Positions 3,164 through 58,986 of a stretch of DNA of 64,000 bases are shown piece by piece. Below the pieces are notes generated by a model that saw nothing but the letters and a program-made list of their open reading frames with translations, ran no database searches and was not told where the DNA came from. The translations under genes were made by a program, and so were the position numbers. Positions within the stretch are counted from its first letter, which is position 1, and the number at the start of each line of letters is the position of its first letter. Origin of the DNA: an uncultured Pseudomonadota bacterium (GTDB lineage Bacteria; Pseudomonadota; Alphaproteobacteria; RF32; CAG-239); NCBI GenBank assembly GCA_949292335.1, contig CASEYY010000031.1, forward strand, positions 1,075-65,074. Direction: 5' to 3'.

Positions 3164-5380
3164 TTAAAAGGCATATTGTATTCCCAGTGTTATCTCGTAA
3201 GGTACCTCAATTTTGCTGTTCATCTCGGTTAAAGCCTCCAAGTAAGCAAAATTTCCGTCACCCCAGTAGAAATTCACTCCGCCGCCCAACTCATAACGCA
3301 AGGAAGACATATCCTCATCAAAAGTATAATCGGCGACTTTGACTACCGACTTATTATCGCTGTCATGCACCAGACCAAATCTGGCAAAACCTTCGACTTT
3401 TTTATCTTCGGCCAGATTAAAACTTTTTCCGACGATTGCGTCAATTCTCTGCCTCAAATAATTTGCACCTTCGGCCTCAACTCTGGTATTAAAATTGGTT
3501 CGATAATCAATACCGTTGATGTGCATATATTCCACACCGAGAGATGTTTCAACAAACCAGTCTTTTTTAAGTTCAAACCTCTTGCCCAAGTTTGAAGCCA
3601 GCAAGACGCTATGAGCCCGATATCTGCTTTCTACATCTCTGCCGGCAGGAGTATAACTTTTAATTTTTTGCTTATGCCAAAAATAAGTTCCGACCAAATC
3701 AACAAACCACTTGCTTGGGGTTTTGAATATACCATACAAACCCAAAGATTTAGTATCACCGTCGCCCCTGCCTTCCAAGTGATAAATTTGCTTAGAATTA
3801 GTATATCCGGCAAAGGCTCCCAAAGTGAGCGTACTATCCCAATCCCAGTTTACATCTTGGTCATAACCGGCCTCGGTTCCGTAGACATCGATTCTGCTTT
3901 TGCCGCCGGCATTATAATCCAGTTCAATTCGTCTGCCCAAACCTTTCACCCAAAGGCGATTTTTGGGCTCGCTGTTTTTTCGCAAACCGCGAACATGGCT
4001 GTATACCGGATTTAGATGGGTATAAAACAGAGAAGACAGTGCCGTATAAGTATTTTTGGCAATTACCGAGCTTTCGGTCACATCCTGAGTTTTAACCAAG
4101 AACCAATTACCGCCTTCCGGAGCAAGGGTATATTCATAGGCCCCGACATCCACCGCGTCGCCTACCAAATAAAAGCTGTCTGACGCGGTATTTTGGGCAA
4201 TAATCTGATATTTTTCGGGGGTATTACCCTCAAAACTATAATCATGCACCACAAGCCCGAAATTACCCGCCCCTCCGACTATGCTGATTTGATCGGATGT
4301 ATCGTCGGATAAACTGGTACTTATATCAAAGACCGCACTTCCGTTGAGATTGGTAAAACTGACATTGGTAAAATTTTCATCATTATAGGTAACATTGATG
4401 GTAGCATTACTTACCGTCAAATCATTAATTGTATTACCGCCGACGATATTTAGCAAGCTATCGCTAAAAGAGTTTGTTCCGCTGAGTGTTCCGCCCGCAT
4501 AAAGCGAAACGATACTACCGCTTTCGGCCGTAACCCCTGATGATTCCCCGCCCGAATAAATGGTCTGAAAACCTTTATTTTTTAGAGTTGTATTCTGAGC
4601 CGTACCACCGGAATAAATTCTCTGATAAGCATTATCGATTGTTGTATTATCGGCCGAGCCGTAAACCGACATTGATGCCGAATTAAGCAAAGCTGTATCT
4701 GTTGCCGTGGCCGAAGAATTGATTTCCACCCATCCGCCGTTTGAAGTAATATTGGTTACATTTCCGCTGCCATAAACATAAATGCTTGATGATGAATTAA
4801 CCAAAGCACCATTTGCCGTTCCGTAAACCCTTATCCTACCGCCGTTTGATACTACAGCATCACTTGAGGTTGCACCGGCATCTATTTGCTGTGTAGCACC
4901 GTTAATTTGCGCACCGATAGATGTACCGCCGCTTAATATTTCTTGCGTACCTCCGTTAATAACGGCATTTTCATCTGTACCTGAAACATTCATCTTACCG
5001 CTGTTTAATACTGTATTTTTTGCCGTTGCGCCATTCGCCACAGTCATGGTTCCGCCGTTAATGGTGGTTCCTTCGGCATTTCCGCCTGCAGCCACACTCA
5101 TGGTTCCCCTCGAAGCCACTGTCGAATTATAAGCATTACCGCCGGATTGAACATTTTGCTGTCCATAAGAATATATATAGGTATTATATGCAGCCCCGCC
5201 GTCCATAATCGTTTGGGTAGAATAAATAGTATAATTCTGAGTAGTACCGTGCACATTCTGCACAAACGGTGCATCAACATAACCATTACTAACGGTATCT
5301 CCTACTGCAACAACTTGAGTTATAGCCTTTGCATTAAAAGGAATTGTTGTCATCATCAAAGTATAAACAATTTTTTTCAT
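3164..5380 (-). CDS. classical (type Va) autotransporter: signal peptide, Gly/Asn/Thr-rich beta-helical passenger, C-terminal beta-barrel translocator
   Basis: N-terminal MKKIVYTLMMTTIPFNAKA signal peptide. Long passenger with reiterated ..GG.A.NT.. / ..VSNGG..-type beta-helix repeats. C-terminal ~270 aa with alternating hydrophobic beta-strands ending ...TLGIQYAF (terminal aromatic residue typical of OM barrels). Confidence 0.8.
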   Translation of the reverse strand: MKKIVYTLMMTTIPFNAKAITQVVAVGDTVSNGYVDAPFVQNVHGTTQNYTIYSTQTIMDGGAAYNTYIYSYGQQNVQSGGNAYNSTVASRGTMSVAAGGNAEGTTINGGTMTVANGATAKNTVLNSGKMNVSGTDENAVINGGTQEILSGGTSIGAQINGATQQIDAGATSSDAVVSNGGRIRVYGTANGALVNSSSSIYVYGSGNVTNITSNGGWVEINSSATATDTALLNSASMSVYGSADNTTIDNAYQRIYSGGTAQNTTLKNKGFQTIYSGGESSGVTAESGSIVSLYAGGTLSGTNSFSDSLLNIVGGNTINDLTVSNATINVTYNDENFTNVSFTNLNGSAVFDISTSLSDDTSDQISIVGGAGNFGLVVHDYSFEGNTPEKYQIIAQNTASDSFYLVGDAVDVGAYEYTLAPEGGNWFLVKTQDVTESSVIAKNTYTALSSLFYTHLNPVYSHVRGLRKNSEPKNRLWVKGLGRRIELDYNAGGKSRIDVYGTEAGYDQDVNWDWDSTLTLGAFAGYTNSKQIYHLEGRGDGDTKSLGLYGIFKTPSKWFVDLVGTYFWHKQKIKSYTPAGRDVESRYRAHSVLLASNLGKRFELKKDWFVETSLGVEYMHINGIDYRTNFNTRVEAEGANYLRQRIDAIVGKSFNLAEDKKVEGFARFGLVHDSDNKSVVKVADYTFDEDMSSLRYELGGGVNFYWGDGNFAYLEALTEMNSKIEVPYEITLGIQYAF

Positions 5381-5474
5381 TTCCGGTCCTCAAAAGCAGT
5401 TTACTTTTATCTCAGTATATAAGAGCAATATTTAAAAATAGAATAATAAGTATATAAAAAAATACAATATTGCA

Positions 5475-5503
5475 TTGATAAATAGCGGCAAATTTCCTAT
5501 AAT
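5475..5503 (+). promoter_or_regulatory. sigma70-like promoter (TTGATA-17-TATAAT) upstream of glgX
   Basis: ttgata / aatagcggcaaatttcc / tataat, read directly. An AGGAG RBS follows at 5524. Confidence 0.4.
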
Positions 5504-7667: not shown

Positions 7668-8022
7668 TATCAAATTTGGAATCATACCACTTATCGCGGT
7701 ATAGATTCCGGAGATCACTTCTGGTCAAGTAAATCTCCACTTTCTTTTTACTCTTGGTTATTGCCTCACGAGAGGTGAAGTAATAACCGCGAGAAGTTTC
7801 CCTCATTTCTGCCGCAAAAGGCACATAATTATGCGAGCGGCGTCTTAACGCGCATTCCTGTACGCTGATTACCAGACGGGAATCCTTAATTTCGATTCCG
7901 ATCAGGTAGTCATCATAAGAAATACGATCGACACGCAAAATGCACCAGGAGAGTCTCTCAACCGGTACATTGAAGTGCTTAGCATAGAAGTCTAAGCTGG
8001 AAAATTTTTCTTCCATAGGCAA
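7651..8022 (-). CDS. hypothetical protein (123 aa), divergent from the large 8185-9867 gene
   Basis: ORF only. No recognisable motif. Confidence 0.4.
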   Translation of the reverse strand: MPMEEKFSSLDFYAKHFNVPVERLSWCILRVDRISYDDYLIGIEIKDSRLVISVQECALRRRSHNYVPFAAEMRETSRGYYFTSREAITKSKKKVEIYLTRSDLRNLYRDKWYDSKFDIKAAP

Positions 8023-8184
8023 TATTTTTAGGGTTAATAATCATTTTATCGGCGACAAATTAGCATATTTTTGTCTATTTGTCAACACATATATTTTTTG
8101 TCAGATATTAATTATTTTTTGACAAATATGTCATAAAAAGGCACAATATAAATAAGGATAACCCACAGCAACGAGGCTTATACA

Positions 8185-9889: not shown

Positions 9890-10325
9890 TTTTATTCGAT
9901 TCTCGGACGCCAAAAAAGTCATCCTCGGATAAAAAAGTTACCCTCGGGCACCACAAAAAGTCATCCTCGGACTTGTTCCGAGGATCTTCCCTCTGTCGTC
10001 ATCCTCGGACTTGTTCCGAGGATCTCCCCTCTGTCGTCATCCTCGGACTTGTTCCGAGGATCTCCCCTCTGTCGTCATCCTCGGACTCCGACCCGAGGGT
10101 CTCTCTGCCATTACCATCCACAACACACTCCAGTCATCCTCGGATAAAAAAGTCACCCTCGGACGCCACAAAAAGTCATCCTCGGACTTGTTCCGAGGAT
10201 CTCTCTGTCATCACCATCAGCCACAACACACTCCCGTCATCCTCGGACTTGTTCCGAGGATCTTCCCCTCTCCTGTCACCCTCGGGCTCCGACCCGAGGG
10301 TCTCATAAGCTGTAGCACATTGTTT
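9890..10325. repeat. dense array of REP-like palindromic units including a perfect 38-bp x3 tandem (9960-10073)
   Basis: gtcatcctcggacttgttccgaggatct(t/c)ccctctgtc is repeated three times head-to-tail. A ~68-bp larger unit (gtcatcctcggataaaaaagtYaccctcggRcRccacaaaaagtcatcctcggacttgttccgaggatc) occurs twice. A ccctcgggctccgacccgaggg hairpin also occurs twice. Confidence 0.85.
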
Positions 10326-10329
10326 TTAT

Positions 10330-10556
10330 CAGATTCTCGGGACAGGCCCGAGAATGACGAAAAGAAAAAACAAGCCCGAGAATGACAAAAAAAGAAAAAA
10401 CAAGCCCGAGAATGACAAAAAAAGAAAAACAAGCCCGCAAAAGCGAGGAAAAAAATCCCGCATGAGAATGACAATAAAGAAACCCTAAAACCACAACTAA
10501 GAATACAAGTCCCAAGAATGACAATAAGAACAAATCCCAAGCACCTTCCTAAATAA
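10330..10556. repeat. short tandem repeats of the aagcccgagaatgacaaaaaaagaaaaaac type (about 5 copies, degenerating)
   Basis: gagaatgaca is the reverse complement of the tgtcattctc arm seen at 1076. Period ~29-30 bp. Confidence 0.75.
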
Positions 10557-10870: not shown

Positions 10871-11416
10871 ATGAAAACAATGAAATTTGCAGCCGCTTTG
10901 ATTATGCTTACAATGTCTGCCACCTCTGTTTTTGCTGCTAACCGCAGCTCTGACCCAAATTTTAAGTGGGATCGGCAGAACGGAGAGGTCTTGGTAGCCG
11001 CCTCTGGCTACACTGACATGGGATTCAGTGGACTAGGTATAGGAGGCGAAGTTGCTTACCTCTTCCCTGGGAAACTCGGCGTTTTCGCCAGCTTCAAAAC
11101 GGCGGTATGCGACTACCAGCTGCCGTATAAAGAAATTGAGACCTGCCGCTGCAACAGTGGTCTCATCGGCATCATTGCCGACACAACACCGGATTTTCCG
11201 GTCGGCTTTTTCTTCAAAGCCGGAGTTGGGTTGGCCGACGGTCTCAAAACCCTCCCGTTGTTTAACCTCGGGTGTGGAGCTAGAGCCTCCTACGGGATGT
11301 TCTACACCCGTATCGGAGTCGACTACAATGTAGAGTCGACGTTCGGAAACAGCGACGGCTGGTGGAATTTAAGATTCGGCCTCACGGTCGGAATTAGCAT
11401 TCCAACCAGCCGATAG
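10871..11416 (+). CDS. small outer-membrane beta-barrel protein (OmpW/OmpA-like 8-strand barrel, inferred)
   Basis: Signal peptide MKTMKFAAALIMLTMSATSVFA. Alternating-hydrophobic Gly/aromatic-rich strands. Followed by a terminator at 11427-11462. Confidence 0.5.
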   Translation: MKTMKFAAALIMLTMSATSVFAANRSSDPNFKWDRQNGEVLVAASGYTDMGFSGLGIGGEVAYLFPGKLGVFASFKTAVCDYQLPYKEIETCRCNSGLIGIIADTTPDFPVGFFFKAGVGLADGLKTLPLFNLGCGARASYGMFYTRIGVDYNVESTFGNSDGWWNLRFGLTVGISIPTSR

Positions 11417-11426
11417 ATAAAACAAA

Positions 11427-11462
11427 AAATCCTTTGGTTTTCAAGACCAAGGGATTTTTTGT
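11427..11462 (+). terminator. rho-independent terminator
   Basis: aatcctttggttttcaagaccaagggatt + TTTTTT. Confidence 0.55.
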
Positions 11463-11526
11463 TGACTTTTGTCCAAAAGATGCTATTTCTGAAAACAGAT
11501 AACACTAATTTTTAATTTTCTATAAT

Positions 11527-12054
11527 ATGGACAAAGTAGCATTTATTGAGGAAGCCATGAAACAAATCGGGCTTTCCCGTGCTGAGCTTTTAGCTCACTG
11601 GAAAAAACAAAACAAAAAGCAAGCTGCCAAAGAAGACAGTACAGCCATGTTCTATCCCTACGAGGTGCTGTTTACCGATGGCTCCCGTTCTTGGGAACCT
11701 CAGGAGTACAAAGTTCCTTGGGGCGTAATTGTCGGCAATTCCGCCTTCATCCTCTATGGAACCGATCAGGCCTTGCCTTTTGCCGAAGCCGAACGCTACT
11801 GCAAAAATCTTTTTGCCGACGGCACCAAATGTCAATGTGCCAACCAAGAACTCTGGCAAAGATTAGCCACCTGCTCCGACGAAGAGCTGGCCAATCTCAA
11901 TGAGTTCCTCGTCTCGCTAGGCGGTCGTCCGCTCAATCAAGCCATCTGGGCTGACGATGGTTTCTATGTTGACTTTAGCGAAGTCCGCCAACGCGGGCTT
12001 TATAAAACTGTCAACACCAAACCACGACAGTTTAGAGCCAGCATCAAACTCTAA
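11527..12054 (+). CDS. hypothetical protein (possibly DUF1566/Lcl-C-terminal-like fold; weak)
   Basis: 175-aa ORF. The C-terminal half (W...AE.YC..L...G...W.L....EL..L......GG) is reminiscent of DUF1566. This is pattern memory only. Confidence 0.4.
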   Translation: MDKVAFIEEAMKQIGLSRAELLAHWKKQNKKQAAKEDSTAMFYPYEVLFTDGSRSWEPQEYKVPWGVIVGNSAFILYGTDQALPFAEAERYCKNLFADGTKCQCANQELWQRLATCSDEELANLNEFLVSLGGRPLNQAIWADDGFYVDFSEVRQRGLYKTVNTKPRQFRASIKL

Positions 12055-12059
12055 GCAAA

Positions 12060-12098
12060 AAAATCCGCTTTGTCCTCCCGACAACGCGGATTTTTTTA
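12060..12098 (+). terminator. rho-independent terminator
   Basis: aatccgc...gcggatt stem followed by a T7 run. Confidence 0.55.
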
Positions 12099-12118
12099 CA
12101 TCCCGCTCTTTTTTACTA

Positions 12119-12310
12119 TTGACAAAATCAACAAAAACACCTATCATCACCCCAACTTAACCGCAAATAACGAGGTTTTTTATGTCGGTAATTATATGCA
12201 AACAACTCAAGTCTAAACGCGTGAACCACCGTTCCCGTGCCTTGTGGCTGTTTGTATAGCAAAAATTGTGCAATCAAAAACGGGAACTTTAACAAGCTCC
12301 CGTTTTTTTA
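12119..12310 (+). promoter_or_regulatory. promoter + leader peptide + alternative antiterminator/terminator hairpins (attenuator-like) upstream of the GNAT-deacylase operon
   Basis: TTGACA(12119-24)-17-TATCAT(12142-47). SD gagg 12172-75. 25-codon ORF 12182-12259. gttcccg (12231-37, inside the ORF) is complementary to cgggaac (12281-87). The same cgggaac segment also forms the aacggga/tcccgtt terminator stem (12279-12304) followed by T7. Confidence 0.45.
12182..12259 (+). CDS. putative leader peptide MSVIICKQLKSKRVNHRSRALWLFV (25 aa)
   Basis: Good SD (GAGG, 6 nt spacing). Sits between the promoter and the terminator hairpin. Confidence 0.25.
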   Translation: MSVIICKQLKSKRVNHRSRALWLFV

Positions 12311-12331
12311 TGCTTAAACGAAAGAAAAATA

Positions 12332-13168
12332 ATGCAAAATCTTCAAAGATACATCTTAAACAATCAATCTCTCTGGCGAGGCCGCCTGCAAAAAATCAAC
12401 AACCAAGAAGTTGTCGGCAACAATCACTTCATCATTCGCCGCCTCAACTCCGGCGATGTTGCCGCCATGAGTGAGCTTTCCGCTCAAATTTACCAACATT
12501 TAGGCGTCGGCGAAGAATGCTTCATTCACAAACACGACCAAGCCTACTACCAAAACATAATCAACACCCCCGATTATGAATACATCGGCGTGTTTCATGG
12601 CAAAAACCTAATTGCCATGTCATACCTTCATATTTGTCGCAATCATTCCGACTTTTGCGACGAAATCCCCGGTTGCCCTCGCAATTTTTTCAACACCCCA
12701 AACGATAAACTTGCCGCTTTCGGCGGGGACAGTGTTTTGCCGGCCTATCGTGGTAATTCACTCAATCAAATCATGATATCTTATCGCATGGAAAGAGCCG
12801 CCGCCCAAAATTGCCAAGGCGTTGCCTCAATTATTGACCGTCACAATCACTGGAATATGCCGCCTTATTTTAATAATGGCTTTTCCATGATCGGCACCGC
12901 AACAGACCCTTCCGATAACGGCAAAATCGCCATCATGCACCACAATCTTTGCCGAGAAGAGAAACAAACCAGTCATGGTATTGCCGTTCCGTTTAATCGC
13001 CTCAATGTTATTGATAACCTTTTGGCCAAAGGCTATATCGGCGGTGCTTACAATCCTCAAACTGCCAGCATTTCTTTTGTTTTGCCCTCACCGCAACGCA
13101 ATCAAAATCGCCAACCGCTCAATTTCAGTATTATCACCAATCACATTATGAGTAGCCGCCATGTTTAA
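12332..13168 (+). CDS. GNAT-family N-acyltransferase (putative)
   Basis: VLPAYRGNSLNQIMISYRMERAAAQN fits GNAT motif A (V.P..RG.G....L). Overlaps the next gene by 8 nt. Confidence 0.5.
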   Translation: MQNLQRYILNNQSLWRGRLQKINNQEVVGNNHFIIRRLNSGDVAAMSELSAQIYQHLGVGEECFIHKHDQAYYQNIINTPDYEYIGVFHGKNLIAMSYLHICRNHSDFCDEIPGCPRNFFNTPNDKLAAFGGDSVLPAYRGNSLNQIMISYRMERAAAQNCQGVASIIDRHNHWNMPPYFNNGFSMIGTATDPSDNGKIAIMHHNLCREEKQTSHGIAVPFNRLNVIDNLLAKGYIGGAYNPQTASISFVLPSPQRNQNRQPLNFSIITNHIMSSRHV

Positions 13169-14003
13169 GAGTTATCAATTTTCTTCAGCTCAAAAAGGAA
13201 CCAATATTTTAATTCTCGGTGCCGTACACGGCAACGAAACTGCCGGCCGTGATGCTCAACTTGCCATTATCAAAGATTTGCAAGAACAACGGCTCTCAAT
13301 TATCAAAGGCTCGGTAACCTTTATCCCCGTTGTCAACGAAGCGGCCAATAAATTAGACCGCCGCTTTGTCGACATCAATCTAAACCGTGTTGTTTGCTTT
13401 CATGACAATCCGCAGAATAACGAAGAAAAAATTGCCAATGAGCTTATCTCATACATCGATTCTTGCGATGTTATGCTCGACTTACATTCCACTCACTGCC
13501 CCGACGATGTCGAATTTGCCTTTATTGACCACCCCTCGGAGCAAAACAAGGAGCTATTATCATTAATGCCGGTCAAAACCGCTCTCGCCGGTTGGCCGCA
13601 AATCTATGCCGACAATCCGCAAATCAGCAATTTCTGCACCGAAGAATATGCCTTTACTCACAACAAAACCGGCATAACTTTGGAATGCGGCTATCACAAA
13701 TCATCTCATGCCGTAGAGATTGCCAAAAAAGCCATTTTAAATGTGCTTGCCCATTACGGCTGTATTGCAATCAACACCCCGACTTGCCAACTTCCGCAAA
13801 TAATCAGCCTAAAAAATTATATCACCAAAACCAACTCCGGCCGCCTAAGCCGCAATTTCAAACATCTTGACCATGTCAAATCAGGTGAGGTTTTGGCAAT
13901 CTACGATAACGGCCAAACCATCACCGCAAATTTTGACGGTTACATGATTATGCCCAACCCCGACGCCAAAATCGGCGACGAATGGTTTTACCTCGGGCAA
14001 TAA
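13161..14003 (+). CDS. succinylglutamate desuccinylase/aspartoacylase (AstE/AspA) family zinc deacylase
   Basis: ILILGAVHGNETAG near the N-terminus is the family's Zn-binding GxHGNE motif. Size ~280 aa as expected. Confidence 0.65.
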   Translation: MFKSYQFSSAQKGTNILILGAVHGNETAGRDAQLAIIKDLQEQRLSIIKGSVTFIPVVNEAANKLDRRFVDINLNRVVCFHDNPQNNEEKIANELISYIDSCDVMLDLHSTHCPDDVEFAFIDHPSEQNKELLSLMPVKTALAGWPQIYADNPQISNFCTEEYAFTHNKTGITLECGYHKSSHAVEIAKKAILNVLAHYGCIAINTPTCQLPQIISLKNYITKTNSGRLSRNFKHLDHVKSGEVLAIYDNGQTITANFDGYMIMPNPDAKIGDEWFYLGQ

Positions 14004-23870: not shown

Positions 23871-24046
23871 ATTTTTTCTCCTGCAAACTCTTTTGTCTAT
23901 TATAGCAAAAAAATAATTATGATGTCAAATTATTAAGTTTGGCAAAATAAAAAATAATCAACAATCATTGTTCTTTATGGTTTTAATATCAAAAAAATCG
24001 TCTATAATCGCTTGCAAACAAATAAATATAAAAACGGCAAAATAAA

Positions 24047-56932: not shown

Positions 56933-57694
56933 ATGACCAAATTTTCTCATGTACTAATCACCGGAGCTTCATCCGGCATTGGCGAAGCTTTGGCTCTGCA
57001 CTATGCTTCGCTAAAAGTTTCGCGTTTATCCTTGTGCGGTCGCAACGAAGAAAGATTAAATCAGGTTGCCGAAAAATGCAAAGAATTGGGTTGTGAAGTT
57101 TCGGCTGTAAAACTTGATGTTTCTGACGCCGCGGCTGTTAAAAATTGGATAGAAGAATGCAATGCCCAACTTCCGCTCAATTTGGTCTTTGCCAATGCCG
57201 GCGTCGGCTCCGTAGAAGAAACATCGGAAAATGTCCGTAACACTTTCAATATTAATGTCATGGGAGTTGTAAACACGGTTCTTCCCACTATTGAGCTTTT
57301 CAAAAAAGCCCCATCGGAACAAGTAAAACAAATTGTTATTACCTCTTCAATCGCGGGTTATCACGGTATGCCGACCTGCCCGTCTTATTCGGCTTCTAAG
57401 GCTTGCGTCAAAGCTTGGGGCGAGGGATTAAGACTGCATTTAAAAAGATTCGGTATCGGAGTTTCCACGGTTTGTCCGGGGTTCGTTCGCTCTCGCATCA
57501 CCGATAAAAACACCTGCCCGATGCCGTTTTTTATGGAAGCAGACCAAGCCGCCCGCATTATTGCCGCAAGAGTGGAAAAAAATGTCGGATTAATAGTATT
57601 TCCGTGGCAAATGCGTCTAGCCGTCTGGTTCGGTTCCATTTTGCCAAACTGTATAAGTGATTTTATTTATGATAAATTGCCGTACAAAGCCTAG
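56933..57694 (+). CDS. SDR-family short-chain dehydrogenase/reductase
   Basis: VLITGASSGIGEALA (TGxxxGxG). NAG. YSASKA (YxxxK). Confidence 0.85.
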   Translation: MTKFSHVLITGASSGIGEALALHYASLKVSRLSLCGRNEERLNQVAEKCKELGCEVSAVKLDVSDAAAVKNWIEECNAQLPLNLVFANAGVGSVEETSENVRNTFNINVMGVVNTVLPTIELFKKAPSEQVKQIVITSSIAGYHGMPTCPSYSASKACVKAWGEGLRLHLKRFGIGVSTVCPGFVRSRITDKNTCPMPFFMEADQAARIIAARVEKNVGLIVFPWQMRLAVWFGSILPNCISDFIYDKLPYKA

Positions 57695-58986
57695 TTTTTT
57701 ATAGCTTTTACTTTTATCAAATACCACAAAAGCAACAGCCCCGGTAACGCCATAATTGTGGTAATAATAAAGAAACATTGCCAAGACACCGCTGCCGCGA
57801 CCAATCCCGAAGTCGCGGCAAAAATGTCGCGTGCCGCTCCCATAAACGACGACAACAAAGCGTATTGCGTTGCGGTATATTTTTTATTGCATAATGCCGA
57901 CAGATAAGCCACAAAAGCAGCCGTTCCCATACCGCCGGAAATATTTTCGATAAAAATATTAAGCATTAACACTTGTGCATTATCGCCGGCATAGGCCTGC
58001 CCGACATAAACCAAATTTGATAAACCTTGTAAAAATCCGCAAACCACCAAGGCTTTTACCAGACCGATTCTGGCAACCACCGCTCCGCCGATAACCGTTC
58101 CGACAATAGTGGCAATCACGCCGTAGATTTTGATGATTGAAGCAATTTGAATTTTAGAAAATCCCATATCATCAAAAAACGGATAAGCCATCGGAGCCAC
58201 ATAAGCGTCGCTCATTCGATAAAAGAAAATAAACAGCAAGATAACCGCCCATTTATCGCGTTTCATAAAATCGGTAAACGGCTTTACCACCGCATTGACA
58301 ATCGTTGCTCGCAAAGTCTTAGGTTTAGACGGCTTATTATTATCCGGTTCTTTGGCAACCAAAATTGCCGCAAGTCCGACCACAACACCGCAAGCCATTA
58401 TTTGATATACTATTGACCAATCCCAAAACTCTGCCAAGAACAAAGCCCCGGCACCGGAAAAAATCGTGCCGATTCGATACCCCAAAACAAATACGGCCAC
58501 ACCGGCAGCCTGTTCTTTGGGCTTAAATCTTTCAATACGATAAGCGTCCAAAACAATATCTTGCGACGCCGAAAACAAGGCCGCCAAAAGCACCCAAAAA
58601 GCAAATAACATCGGCGAAACTTGCGGTTTAAGCAGCGACATTACCAGCAAAGATATTATCAATAAAATCTGCAACAGCACTGCCCAAGACCGCCGCCGAC
58701 CAAGTCTTGATAACAACGGCAAGCTCACCTGGTCGATTAATGGCGAGAACAACCACTTAAAGCTGTAAGGAGCTTTTACCAACGAAAACAGACCGATTGC
58801 CGCCAAAGAAACACCGACATCTTTCAACCACAAAGACAAGGTCGATGACACCAACAAAAACGGCAATCCCGAAACAAAGCCGAGCAACAGCATTAAAGGC
58901 ATTCGTCTGTCGGCATAAATTTTTAGCGATTTTATCCAACCTAAGGGCATTACAATCTCTCCTTTACCCAAGACCATAACAGACAA
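57691..58986 (-). CDS. ampG: AmpG-family muropeptide MFS permease
   Basis: ...RRMPLMLLLGFVSGLPFLLVSSTLSLWL... N-terminal AmpG signature. 12+ TM segments. Confidence 0.8.
   Translation of the reverse strand: MSVMVLGKGEIVMPLGWIKSLKIYADRRMPLMLLLGFVSGLPFLLVSSTLSLWLKDVGVSLAAIGLFSLVKAPYSFKWLFSPLIDQVSLPLLSRLGRRRSWAVLLQILLIISLLVMSLLKPQVSPMLFAFWVLLAALFSASQDIVLDAYRIERFKPKEQAAGVAVFVLGYRIGTIFSGAGALFLAEFWDWSIVYQIMACGVVVGLAAILVAKEPDNNKPSKPKTLRATIVNAVVKPFTDFMKRDKWAVILLFIFFYRMSDAYVAPMAYPFFDDMGFSKIQIASIIKIYGVIATIVGTVIGGAVVARIGLVKALVVCGFLQGLSNLVYVGQAYAGDNAQVLMLNIFIENISGGMGTAAFVAYLSALCNKKYTATQYALLSSFMGAARDIFAATSGLVAAAVSWQCFFIITTIMALPGLLLLWYLIKVKAIKN

Follow-up and report, generated by a model that had tools for sequence, protein, structure and literature searches.

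A candidate lysine-codon leader-peptide attenuator upstream of a GNAT-fold gene in uncultured gut Alphaproteobacteria

The 64,000 nucleotides (nt) analysed here, referred to below as the window, come from an uncultured alphaproteobacterium (GTDB lineage RF32; CAG-239; assembly GCA_949292335.1, contig CASEYY010000031.1, positions 1,075 to 65,074). Within the window, a short leader region stands in front of two genes that overlap by 8 nt, one for a protein of the GNAT fold and one for a protein resembling AstE/AspA-family zinc deacylases; we call their products the GNAT-like and the AstE-like protein. In architecture and mechanism, this leader is very probably a ribosome-mediated leader-peptide transcription attenuator of the trp/his type. 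A first-pass annotation of the sequence had pointed to it, describing a near-consensus promoter (TTGACA-17-TATCAT), a GAGG motif and a 25-codon open reading frame (ORF), and each of these is indeed present (Table 1).

Table 1. Features of the leader region and the adjoining genes (window coordinates; MFE, minimum free energy; aa, amino acids; AF2, AlphaFold2)
Feature	Coordinates	Strand	Basis or remark
Intrinsic terminator of the upstream gene (11527-12054), AAAAAAATCCGC…GCGGATTTTTTT	12058-12098	+	sequence; weak terminator-like Rfam matches
Sigma-70-type promoter, TTGACA (12119-12124), 17-nt spacer, TATCAT (12142-12147)	12119-12147	+	11/12 consensus
Shine-Dalgarno motif, GAGG	12172-12175	+	6 nt 5' of the leader ATG
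Leader ORF, 25 codons and stop, predicted peptide MSVIICKQLKSKRVNHRSRALWLFV*	12182-12259	+	present in 62/62 loci
Central hairpin of the predicted OFF state	12195-12258	+	MFE fold
Lys-rich putative regulatory codon window, K7-Q-L-K10-S-K12-R13 (AAA CAA CUC AAG UCU AAA CGC)	12200-12220	+	peptide and codon conservation
Segment 1 (CGCG-U-GAAC), partner of segment 2	12218-12226	+	MFE fold and covariation
Segment 2 (GUUCCCGUG)	12231-12239	+	partner is segment 1, or segment 3 via 12231-12238
Segment 3, terminator 5' arm, includes ACGGGAAC at 12280-12287	12276-12289	+	fold, covariation
Segment 4, terminator 3' arm (12294-12307), with U7 tract (12303-12309)	12294-12309	+	fold, covariation
Gene 1, 278-aa GNAT-fold protein with C-terminal extension	12332-13168	+	PF00583, AF2, Foldseek
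Gene 2, 280-aa AstE/AspA-family zinc deacylase-like protein	13161-14003	+	PF24827

The promoter is the strongest promoter-like site in the 7.5 kilobases (kb) that were scanned, from 9.0 to 16.5 kb, and transcription would be expected to start near 12154. Because the gene upstream has an intrinsic terminator of its own, the leader forms a separate transcription unit. Two minus-strand ORFs that cross it (12128-12295 and 12157-12273) were set aside, as they are without conserved counterpart and the plus-strand elements account for the conservation. At the gathering score, Rfam returned no relevant family in the window or in 12 related loci, and over 11900-12500, at E values of up to 10, it returned chance-level matches to terminator-like small RNAs only. 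The element represents an uncatalogued leader-peptide attenuator family that lies outside every curated Rfam family.

Relatives were collected by scanning one genome per species for the 278-aa GNAT-like protein. The scan gave 61 related loci, every one in a metagenome-assembled genome (MAG) of gut or rumen Alphaproteobacteria, with protein identities to the window of 38-99%; a 99% match lies on MAG contig CASFRM010000013. The comparisons that follow use the resulting 62 sequences (the window and the 61 related loci), each comprising the 260 nt upstream of the GNAT-like gene. One layout is common to all 62: a promoter, a Shine-Dalgarno motif, a small ORF of 19-27 codons that starts with ATG (GTG in two loci), and a terminator hairpin with a T-run, ending 20-60 nt 5' of the GNAT-like gene. 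The -35 element is exactly TTGACA in 46 loci, the promoter matches at least 10 of the 12 consensus positions in 45, and the median distance from the end of the -10 element to the leader ATG is 29 nt. The Shine-Dalgarno motif is of the AGGA, GAGG or AAGG type in 56 loci, the remaining 6 having a purine-rich GAAAGAA in its place, and the terminators, each with its T-run, have predicted energies of -8.5 to -26.4 kcal/mol. The first-pass annotation had named conservation of the small ORF and the hairpin arms in relatives as a check on its proposal, and both are conserved in all 61 related loci. Two of these loci, L006 and L042 (contigs JAZNVO010000011 and JAZNVO010000238), belong to a single MAG, which thus holds two copies of the leader and GNAT-like gene with different leader peptides; their GNAT-like proteins are 55% and 47% identical to that of the window, and the MAG is either a mixed bin or a two-copy genome. 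Another locus, L046, contains a match to group II intron domain D1-D4 (RF02004, 118.6 bits) at 7881-8080.

A unit with its own strong promoter and terminator might instead be an independent small gene, yielding a functional 25-aa peptide or a trans-acting small RNA of ~155 nt, with a terminator that precedes the GNAT-like gene by chance. In Alphaproteobacteria, a terminated attenuator RNA and the peptide it encodes can have functions in trans, as rnTrpL and peTrpL illustrate (PMC12612679). We nonetheless regard such a gene as very improbable: the GNAT-like gene follows the leader in 62 of 62 loci despite changing neighbours, the C-terminus of the peptide is not conserved, its reading frame drifting after the Lys window, and the three-way covariation of segments 2, 3 and 4 described below makes sense only for a switch. 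A role in trans on top of the one in cis is conceivable.

In the MFE fold, the 158-nt leader RNA forms a central hairpin, which takes in most of the ORF, followed by the terminator (-38.3 kcal/mol, z = -2.6). The central hairpin consists of an outer stem, P1 (12195-12204 with 12249-12258), a middle stem, and an inner stem, P2, in which segment 1 pairs with segment 2. The terminator hairpin, 12276-12307 (AAAAACGGGA-A-CUU/UAAC/AAG-C-UCCCGUUUUU, -13 kcal/mol), runs into T7 at 12303-12309. The observation from which the attenuator proposal had started, namely that gttcccg at 12231-12237 is complementary to cgggaac at 12281-12287 and that the terminator shares the latter segment, is borne out, and the complementarity extends to 8 base pairs (bp), GUUCCCGU at 12231-12238 with ACGGGAAC at 12280-12287. 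This duplex between segments 2 and 3, the putative antiterminator, has an energy of -14.6 kcal/mol in the window (z = -4.2 against shuffles). The hairpin between segments 1 and 2 (12218-12226 with 12231-12239), an anti-antiterminator of which the first-pass annotation made no mention, completes the classical four-segment layout.

Both alternative states recur across the loci. Full-length MFE folds have the terminator formed and segment 2 paired upstream in 58 of 62 loci. Segment 2 lies 41-55 nt past the leader ATG throughout and has its complement in the terminator 5' arm, such that a duplex between segments 2 and 3 is found at the equivalent place in all 62 (-7.8 to -19.4 kcal/mol, median -12.7; median z against shuffles -2.95). 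The letters of this duplex change in a compensated manner: the window has GUUCCCGU with ACGGGAAC, and other loci have UCUCCUG with CGGGAGA (L013), AUCCUGUUU with AAACAGGAU (L046), UUCGGCC with GGCCGAA (L053), and UUUCGACC with GGUCGAAA (L055). Covariation was scored on a MAFFT alignment (A2), with helix partners slid by 1-3 columns and 500 shuffles as controls; RNAalifold, run on a MAFFT alignment, gave the terminator alone, and the other helices were tested as explicit structures. The antiterminator helix is 75% paired, as against 39-52% in the slid controls, and has 55 double-change cells, a result that 0 of 500 shuffles reach. The 1:2 helix and the terminator together are 83.7% paired (slid controls, 42-60%); taken singly, the 1:2 helix (alignment columns 62-71 with 80-89) is 77% paired with double changes in 5 of 8 pairs, and the terminator helix is 88.9% paired with double changes in 8 of 10. 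One column of segment 3, column 149, covaries with its partners in segment 2 and in segment 4 at once (C-G-C in 22 sequences, U-A-U in 15, U-G-C in 12). Such a three-way pattern would arise only if segment 3 alternated between two partners, which argues for a switch.

A metabolite-binding riboswitch would likewise present conserved leader structure and an expression platform made of terminator and antiterminator, the small ORF then being incidental. Conserved nucleotides lie mostly in stems here, however, with no evident conserved multi-helix junction or pocket and no Rfam match, and the ORF bears marks that a riboswitch would not require: a conserved Shine-Dalgarno motif and ATG, whole-codon indels 5' of segment 1, and A/G third positions that preserve Lys and Gln. 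We therefore consider a riboswitch the most improbable of the readings, and even pooled with an independent small gene it remains well within the unlikely range.

The coding signature is as regular as the pairing. The distance from the leader ATG to segment 1 is only ever 33, 36 or 39 nt (four apparent exceptions are alignment offsets), and the ORF changes in length by whole codons only, upstream of a core that reads K-Q-[LMI]-K-x-K-[RK]. On either side of this core the peptide is free to vary. Its N-terminal 5-9 residues are variable, and since the spacing between segments 1 and 2 ranges from 14 to 17 nt across loci, the conserved UUCCCG encodes FP, SR or IP depending on the locus; downstream of the Lys window the reading frame drifts. 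Among the 59 distinct peptides (19-27 aa) of the 62 loci, Lys occupies offsets -6, -3 and -1 in 56, 54 and 51, respectively, and 58 have 3-4 Lys within 7-8 codons. The Lys codons alternate synonymously, with AAA/AAG counts of 48/9, 25/30 and 42/10 at the three positions, as do those of the neighbouring Gln (CAA/CAG, 25/24); the Lys positions show one AAC, two CGG and no AGA or AGG. By comparison, the Arg codon CGU inside P2 becomes AUG in L013, L016, L019 and L035, with compensating changes in segment 2. Because AAA and AAG alternate and the CGU in P2 is replaceable, Lys is the only residue that appears to be universally selected as an amino acid. On these sequence grounds we take the leader ORF to be translated. 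The codons that the first-pass annotation singled out in the ORF, CGU-UCC-CGU (Arg-Ser-Arg), are not the conserved feature, which is the Lys cluster. Its wider proposal of translation-coupled attenuation through mutually exclusive hairpins gains support from the layout in 62 of 62 loci, from covariation of both states and from this coding signature.

Where would a paused ribosome have to stand for the switch to turn on? In a stall scan, we masked the ribosome footprint at each A-site position and calculated the expected number of pairs between segments 2 and 3 in a transcript ending before segment 4. At all A-site positions up to the last K/R codon, 8-9 pairs are expected; the number falls to 3.7 two codons further on and to approximately zero from +3 to +9, because a ribosome at these positions covers segment 2. 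Since pairing collapses beyond the last K/R codon, the Lys window comprises the last seven codons at which a stall would still permit antitermination. The first-pass annotation had also suggested folding the RNA with and without a masked ribosome: unmasked, the OFF hairpins form in the 58 MFE folds mentioned above, and when the masked ribosome sits on the last K/R codon, segment 2 captures the terminator 5' arm in 59 of 62 loci.

We therefore picture the following sequence of events. Transcription would start near 12154 from the leader's own promoter, and segments 1 and 2 of the nascent RNA would pair inside the central hairpin, leaving segment 3 free to pair with segment 4; the intrinsic terminator so formed would release a leader RNA of ~155 nt (the OFF state). 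A ribosome pausing within K-Q-L-K-S-K-R would cover P1 and segment 1 and leave segment 2 exposed, which could then pair, through 12231-12238, with 12280-12287 before segment 4 is made. No terminator would form, and transcription would read through into the GNAT-like gene and, in the window, the AstE-like gene (the ON state). A ribosome that does not pause would cover segment 2 while segments 3 and 4 are being transcribed, and termination would follow. The elements, the covarying alternative pairings, the coding signature and the stall geometry can all be read from the aligned sequences, and together they present what defines the class: a predicted separate leader transcript, a short ORF with a ribosome-binding site (RBS), a suitably placed cluster of codons for one amino acid, and exclusive 1:2, 2:3 and 3:4 helices.

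A second leader bears on what the switch might sense. It was reached via the AstE-like family (680 hits), in genomes in which the AstE-like gene lies away from the GNAT-like gene; nine such contexts were examined. In 9 of 9, the AstE-like gene is convergent with a gene for a distant GNAT paralogue (GNAT-2; 256 aa; full-length identity 25%, E 1e-16), and a ~113-aa ORF mostly precedes the AstE-like gene in its operon. Where contigs carrying the window-type gene (GNAT-1) and GNAT-2 were looked up, their accession prefixes did not match. Upstream of GNAT-2 lie a promoter, a small ORF, two hairpins and mostly a terminator (L062:5620-5830 and L063:5625-5840, both on the minus strand, and L064-L134), the terminator reading GAUUUGAG…CUCAAAUC with a U-run. 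The sample of 63 loci contains 28 distinct leader sequences and 19 distinct peptides, with the consensus M-x(5-9)-[AS]-L-R-L-R-R-x-x-[LM]-R-R-stop. Of the residues, 27% are Arg; the final 12 codons include 4-6 of them, at positions that partly shift, and Lys is rare. Hairpins A and B and the terminator of the GNAT-2 leader are clear, and no consistent alternative pairing was found that could serve as its antiterminator. The evidence for an Arg leader is the weaker of the two since G+C-rich stems contain many of its Arg codons. Each paralogue's leader nevertheless keeps its own basic residue, which is the pattern of an amino-acid-specific attenuator and argues against a reading based purely on charge; the Arg-rich leader thus hints at amino-acid-specific sensing.

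Several observations were made in passing around GNAT-2. In five metagenome loci, L070-L074, the hairpin equivalent to the terminator is without a T-run (…GTTTTGAGTTATCTCAAACCTGTTG…), and termination there may be weak or lost. Genes for peptidoglycan recycling recur near the module of GNAT-2 and AstE-like genes: a Mur-ligase-like gene and a Peptidase_S66 (LdcA-like) gene at L066:1-1528, Peptidase_S66 again at L132:1-34, and AnmK in L062 (1267-2574) and L063. These murein-recycling neighbours may be a coincidence, or the deacylase may act on murein-derived compounds that contain diaminopimelate (DAP). A muropeptide transporter gene, AmpG, is present in the window as well, at 57691-58986, far from the leader.

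What, then, would make the ribosome pause? We rank first a shortage of charged tRNA-Lys, whether through lysine limitation or any other drop in Lys-tRNA charging, because the identity of Lys is selected, the codons are rightly placed and the paralogue uses Arg; as an identification of the signal, this stands just short of an even chance. As the best explanation overall, a trp/his-type attenuator answering to Lys-tRNA shortage is, in our judgement, slightly better than even.

The main rival on the signal keeps the same RNA switch and has the ribosome arrested by its own nascent peptide at K-Q-[LMI]-K-x-K-[RK], a +X+ motif, in concert with a small molecule in the exit tunnel or the peptidyl transferase centre; the ligand might be macrolide-like, or it might be a metabolite, for instance a polyamine or basic amino acid, and the GNAT would modify or detoxify it. 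Macrolide-dependent arrest in ErmDL-type leaders has +X+ as its documented core (PMC12583479), the conserved Gln and hydrophobic residue persist through synonymous changes that a pure tRNA-Lys sensor would not need, and many GNATs modify drugs or polyamines, the fold of the GNAT-like protein matching AAC(6'), SpeG and PaiA among others. Yet Lys is almost never replaced by Arg at its three positions (no AGA or AGG, two CGG), although +X+ accepts both, and three distinct peptides, from L041, L049, L050 and L051, have three Lys and no +X+ at all. The N-terminal 5-9 residues vary, and the Gln codon sits in stem P1, where RNA constraints may explain its conservation. Furthermore, the GNAT-like gene is chromosomal and clade-wide with stable, clade-specific synteny, unlike a patchy mobile resistance gene; it is not a recognised resistance determinant of the erm, msr, mef or ABC-F type, and PADLOC gave no match. 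We consider nascent-peptide arrest unlikely on balance, for macrolide-like and metabolite ligands alike.

With the same RNA switch once more, the leader could be a general sensor of translation stress, triggered by ribosome-targeting drugs, global starvation or lost coupling of transcription and translation, with the Lys codons merely biasing the response. The stall scan suits such a sensor, as a stall at any codon from the second to the last K/R favours pairing of segments 2 and 3, and the whiB7 upstream ORF (uORF) attenuator provides an example that is enriched for one residue and answers many amino-acid and translation stresses (PMC10274678). A non-specific sensor would have no need of three position-specific Lys codons across 59 peptides, however, and the paralogue's switch to Arg argues for residue specificity; we therefore hold general stress sensing to be improbable.

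Returning to Lys-tRNA shortage, there are results that weigh against it or complicate its mechanism, and we gather them here. Where the transcript starts, that a terminated RNA is made and that the ORF is translated are all computational predictions. In the window, the OFF state is favoured energetically (-38.3 kcal/mol, as against -31.4 with the antiterminator enforced, a difference of 6.9), and the terminator wins at equilibrium even under a ribosome mask; the model therefore needs kinetic, co-transcriptional control. Conversely, in 39 of 62 loci, RNA truncated ahead of segment 4 favours the antiterminator even when free of ribosomes, and therefore the OFF state would depend on which helices fold first and on segment 2 being covered by ribosomes. 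We infer both the kinetic nature of the decision and the cause of the pause. In the leader motif, Gln and a hydrophobic residue are conserved alongside Lys, and [KR]-x-[KR] stands at a fixed stall site in 55 of 59 leader peptides and in 18 of 19 paralogue leaders, as peptide arrest would predict. The regulated proteins do not betray a link to lysine, either. Pfam, NCBIfam, PADLOC, PDB profile, AF2 and Foldseek comparisons of the GNAT-like protein identify a generic GNAT only, and the AstE-like protein does not reach any of the NCBIfam equivalog cut-offs (aspartoacylase, DoeB, AstE), which places it at family level only. None of the 20 window proteins checked is encoded by a lys, dap or arg gene, and ten neighbour proteins chosen to represent the related loci, read by eye only, gave no evident case either. 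The GNAT-like protein itself is only slightly low in Lys (1.2 percentage points under background, 27th percentile), and the AstE-like protein is not Lys-depleted.

The GNAT-like family is small, with 59 clusters among 5.8 billion proteins. PF00583 is weakly matched by 19 of 20 members (best E 1.6e-7; the window protein itself, E 0.022), and the AF2 model of the window protein (pLDDT 88.3) matches many GNATs in Foldseek, with E values down to ~1e-8 and target-normalised TM-scores mostly of 0.6-0.8. The AstE-like protein matches PF24827 with an E value of 2.7e-16 (60.1 bits, cut-off 25). The first-pass annotation had placed the leader directly upstream of a GNAT plus AstE/AspA-family pair, which holds for the window and not in general, as only 29 of 62 loci have the AstE-like gene adjacent in the same orientation. 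Some 28 loci form a clade without this partner, in which the GNAT-like gene is flanked by a divergent ligA-like gene and, mostly, by an infC-like gene. The latter, the next gene on the same strand in ~22 loci of this clade, resembles infC (for IF-3) by eye; in L025, it lies at 4937-5488, and its first listed start is TTG.

Taken together, could the two leaders tell us what these enzymes do? If both are starvation sensors, they would mark the two paralogous GNATs and the AstE-like deacylase as unrecognised enzymes of Lys and Arg supply in this gut clade. One possibility is that they perform N-acyl protection and deacylation, as non-orthologous replacements of DapD/DapE in the diaminopimelate route and of ArgA/ArgE in the arginine route; another is salvage that frees Lys or Arg from acylated forms. 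We offer this supply role as a speculation that is more doubtful than not by a wide measure.

Among known systems, the closest likeness is to the trp attenuator, as in trpL of E. coli and trpE(G) of Sinorhizobium meliloti and other Alphaproteobacteria. Both have their own promoter and a short leader ORF, translated in trp and, we predict, here; both place the regulatory codons at the 5' edge of segment 1; and both are built on exclusive 1:2, 2:3 and 3:4 pairings. In both, too, the first structural gene lies behind an intrinsic terminator, and the shortened leader RNA of the trp attenuators measures ~110-150 nt (PMC12612679). The differences are nonetheless clear. The residue here is Lys, with 3-4 copies interleaved within 7 codons rather than tandem Trp; the stop codon of the leader is placed beyond segment 2, not in the interval that separates it from segment 1; what is regulated is a GNAT-fold protein, alone or together with an AstE-like deacylase, in place of a known biosynthetic operon; and the trp attenuator has no sequence or Rfam relationship to the element described here.

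Literature searches turned up no precedent for a leader-peptide attenuator based on Lys codons. To our knowledge, the only one is the alpha-aminoadipate lysine cluster of Thermus thermophilus, in which a leader peptide with Lys codons reportedly controls read-through in response to lysine. That leader differs from ours in its phylum, in its unrelated sequence, in the tandem arrangement of Lys codons in a 14-aa peptide, and in controlling true lysine biosynthesis genes. Ligand-sensing arrest peptides form another point of reference. TnaC, which senses tryptophan, and SpeFL, which senses ornithine and carries a basic HIRR motif, stall the ribosome and thereby turn on downstream catabolic or detoxifying genes. 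They work through Rho-dependent termination, with a stall at or near the stop codon of a longer, well-conserved peptide, whereas the leader studied here has an intrinsic terminator and a conserved core of ~7 residues.

In ErmDL-class leaders, as here, a short peptide carries [KR]-x-[KR] where a stall remodels the downstream RNA (PMC12583479), and the paralogue leader, with its …LRLRR…, is similar in this respect. ErmDL leaders are described as translational attenuation that unmasks the RBS of a resistance methyltransferase, however, and the present element uses a terminator platform, does not interchange K and R, is of no known resistance type and occupies a conserved chromosomal locus. The whiB7 attenuator of mycobacteria likewise combines a uORF, an antiterminator and a rho-independent terminator, with variable sequence and one enriched residue, and the residue composition of its uORF sets which starvation is sensed (PMC10274678). 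It controls a transcription factor through a long, Ala-rich uORF and answers many ribosome-targeting drugs, in contrast to the Lys codons and enzyme-like product found here.

The element adds a well-supported family of leader-peptide attenuators, with Lys as the putative regulatory residue, in a clade of uncultured gut Alphaproteobacteria about whose gene regulation almost nothing is known. It also provides a functional handle on two orphan enzyme families, the lineage-restricted GNAT and the AstE-like deacylase: because the codons of a leader usually name the end product of the pathway, the Lys and Arg leaders give testable hypotheses on enzyme function, and interest in the system will grow if they do reveal the pathway roles of these two families. 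Finally, the leader offers a clean system in which a sensor of tRNA charging can be told apart from a +X+ arrest peptide, as the two make differing predictions for K-to-R swaps.

We also looked for the leader motif elsewhere in the window and in all loci, and for other amino-acid-rich leader ORFs with terminators, and no candidate was credible. An ORF at 23977 of the window was rejected as another leader, being without a Shine-Dalgarno motif and without a terminator, and an 'MFFRLRLRFP' at L017:704 was judged spurious, with no evident promoter or Shine-Dalgarno motif and no annotated gene start nearby.

Farther upstream of the leader in the window are two small genes, 10871-11416 (181 aa) and 11527-12054 (175 aa), neither with a match in Pfam, NCBIfam or PADLOC, and separated by a terminator with a perfect 20-bp hairpin at 11421-11463. 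Beyond these, the intergenic region at 9900-10440 holds an array of short palindromic repeats that resembles repetitive extragenic palindromic (REP) sequences and is overlapped by several spurious ORFs. A 38-nt unit, GTCATCCTCGGACTTGTTCCGAGGATCTCCCCTCTGTC, occurs there in 3.4 copies with a 98% match, other periods are 100 nt and 30 nt, and two identical minus-strand hairpins of terminator-like form lie within the array, at 9963-9985 and 10178-10200.

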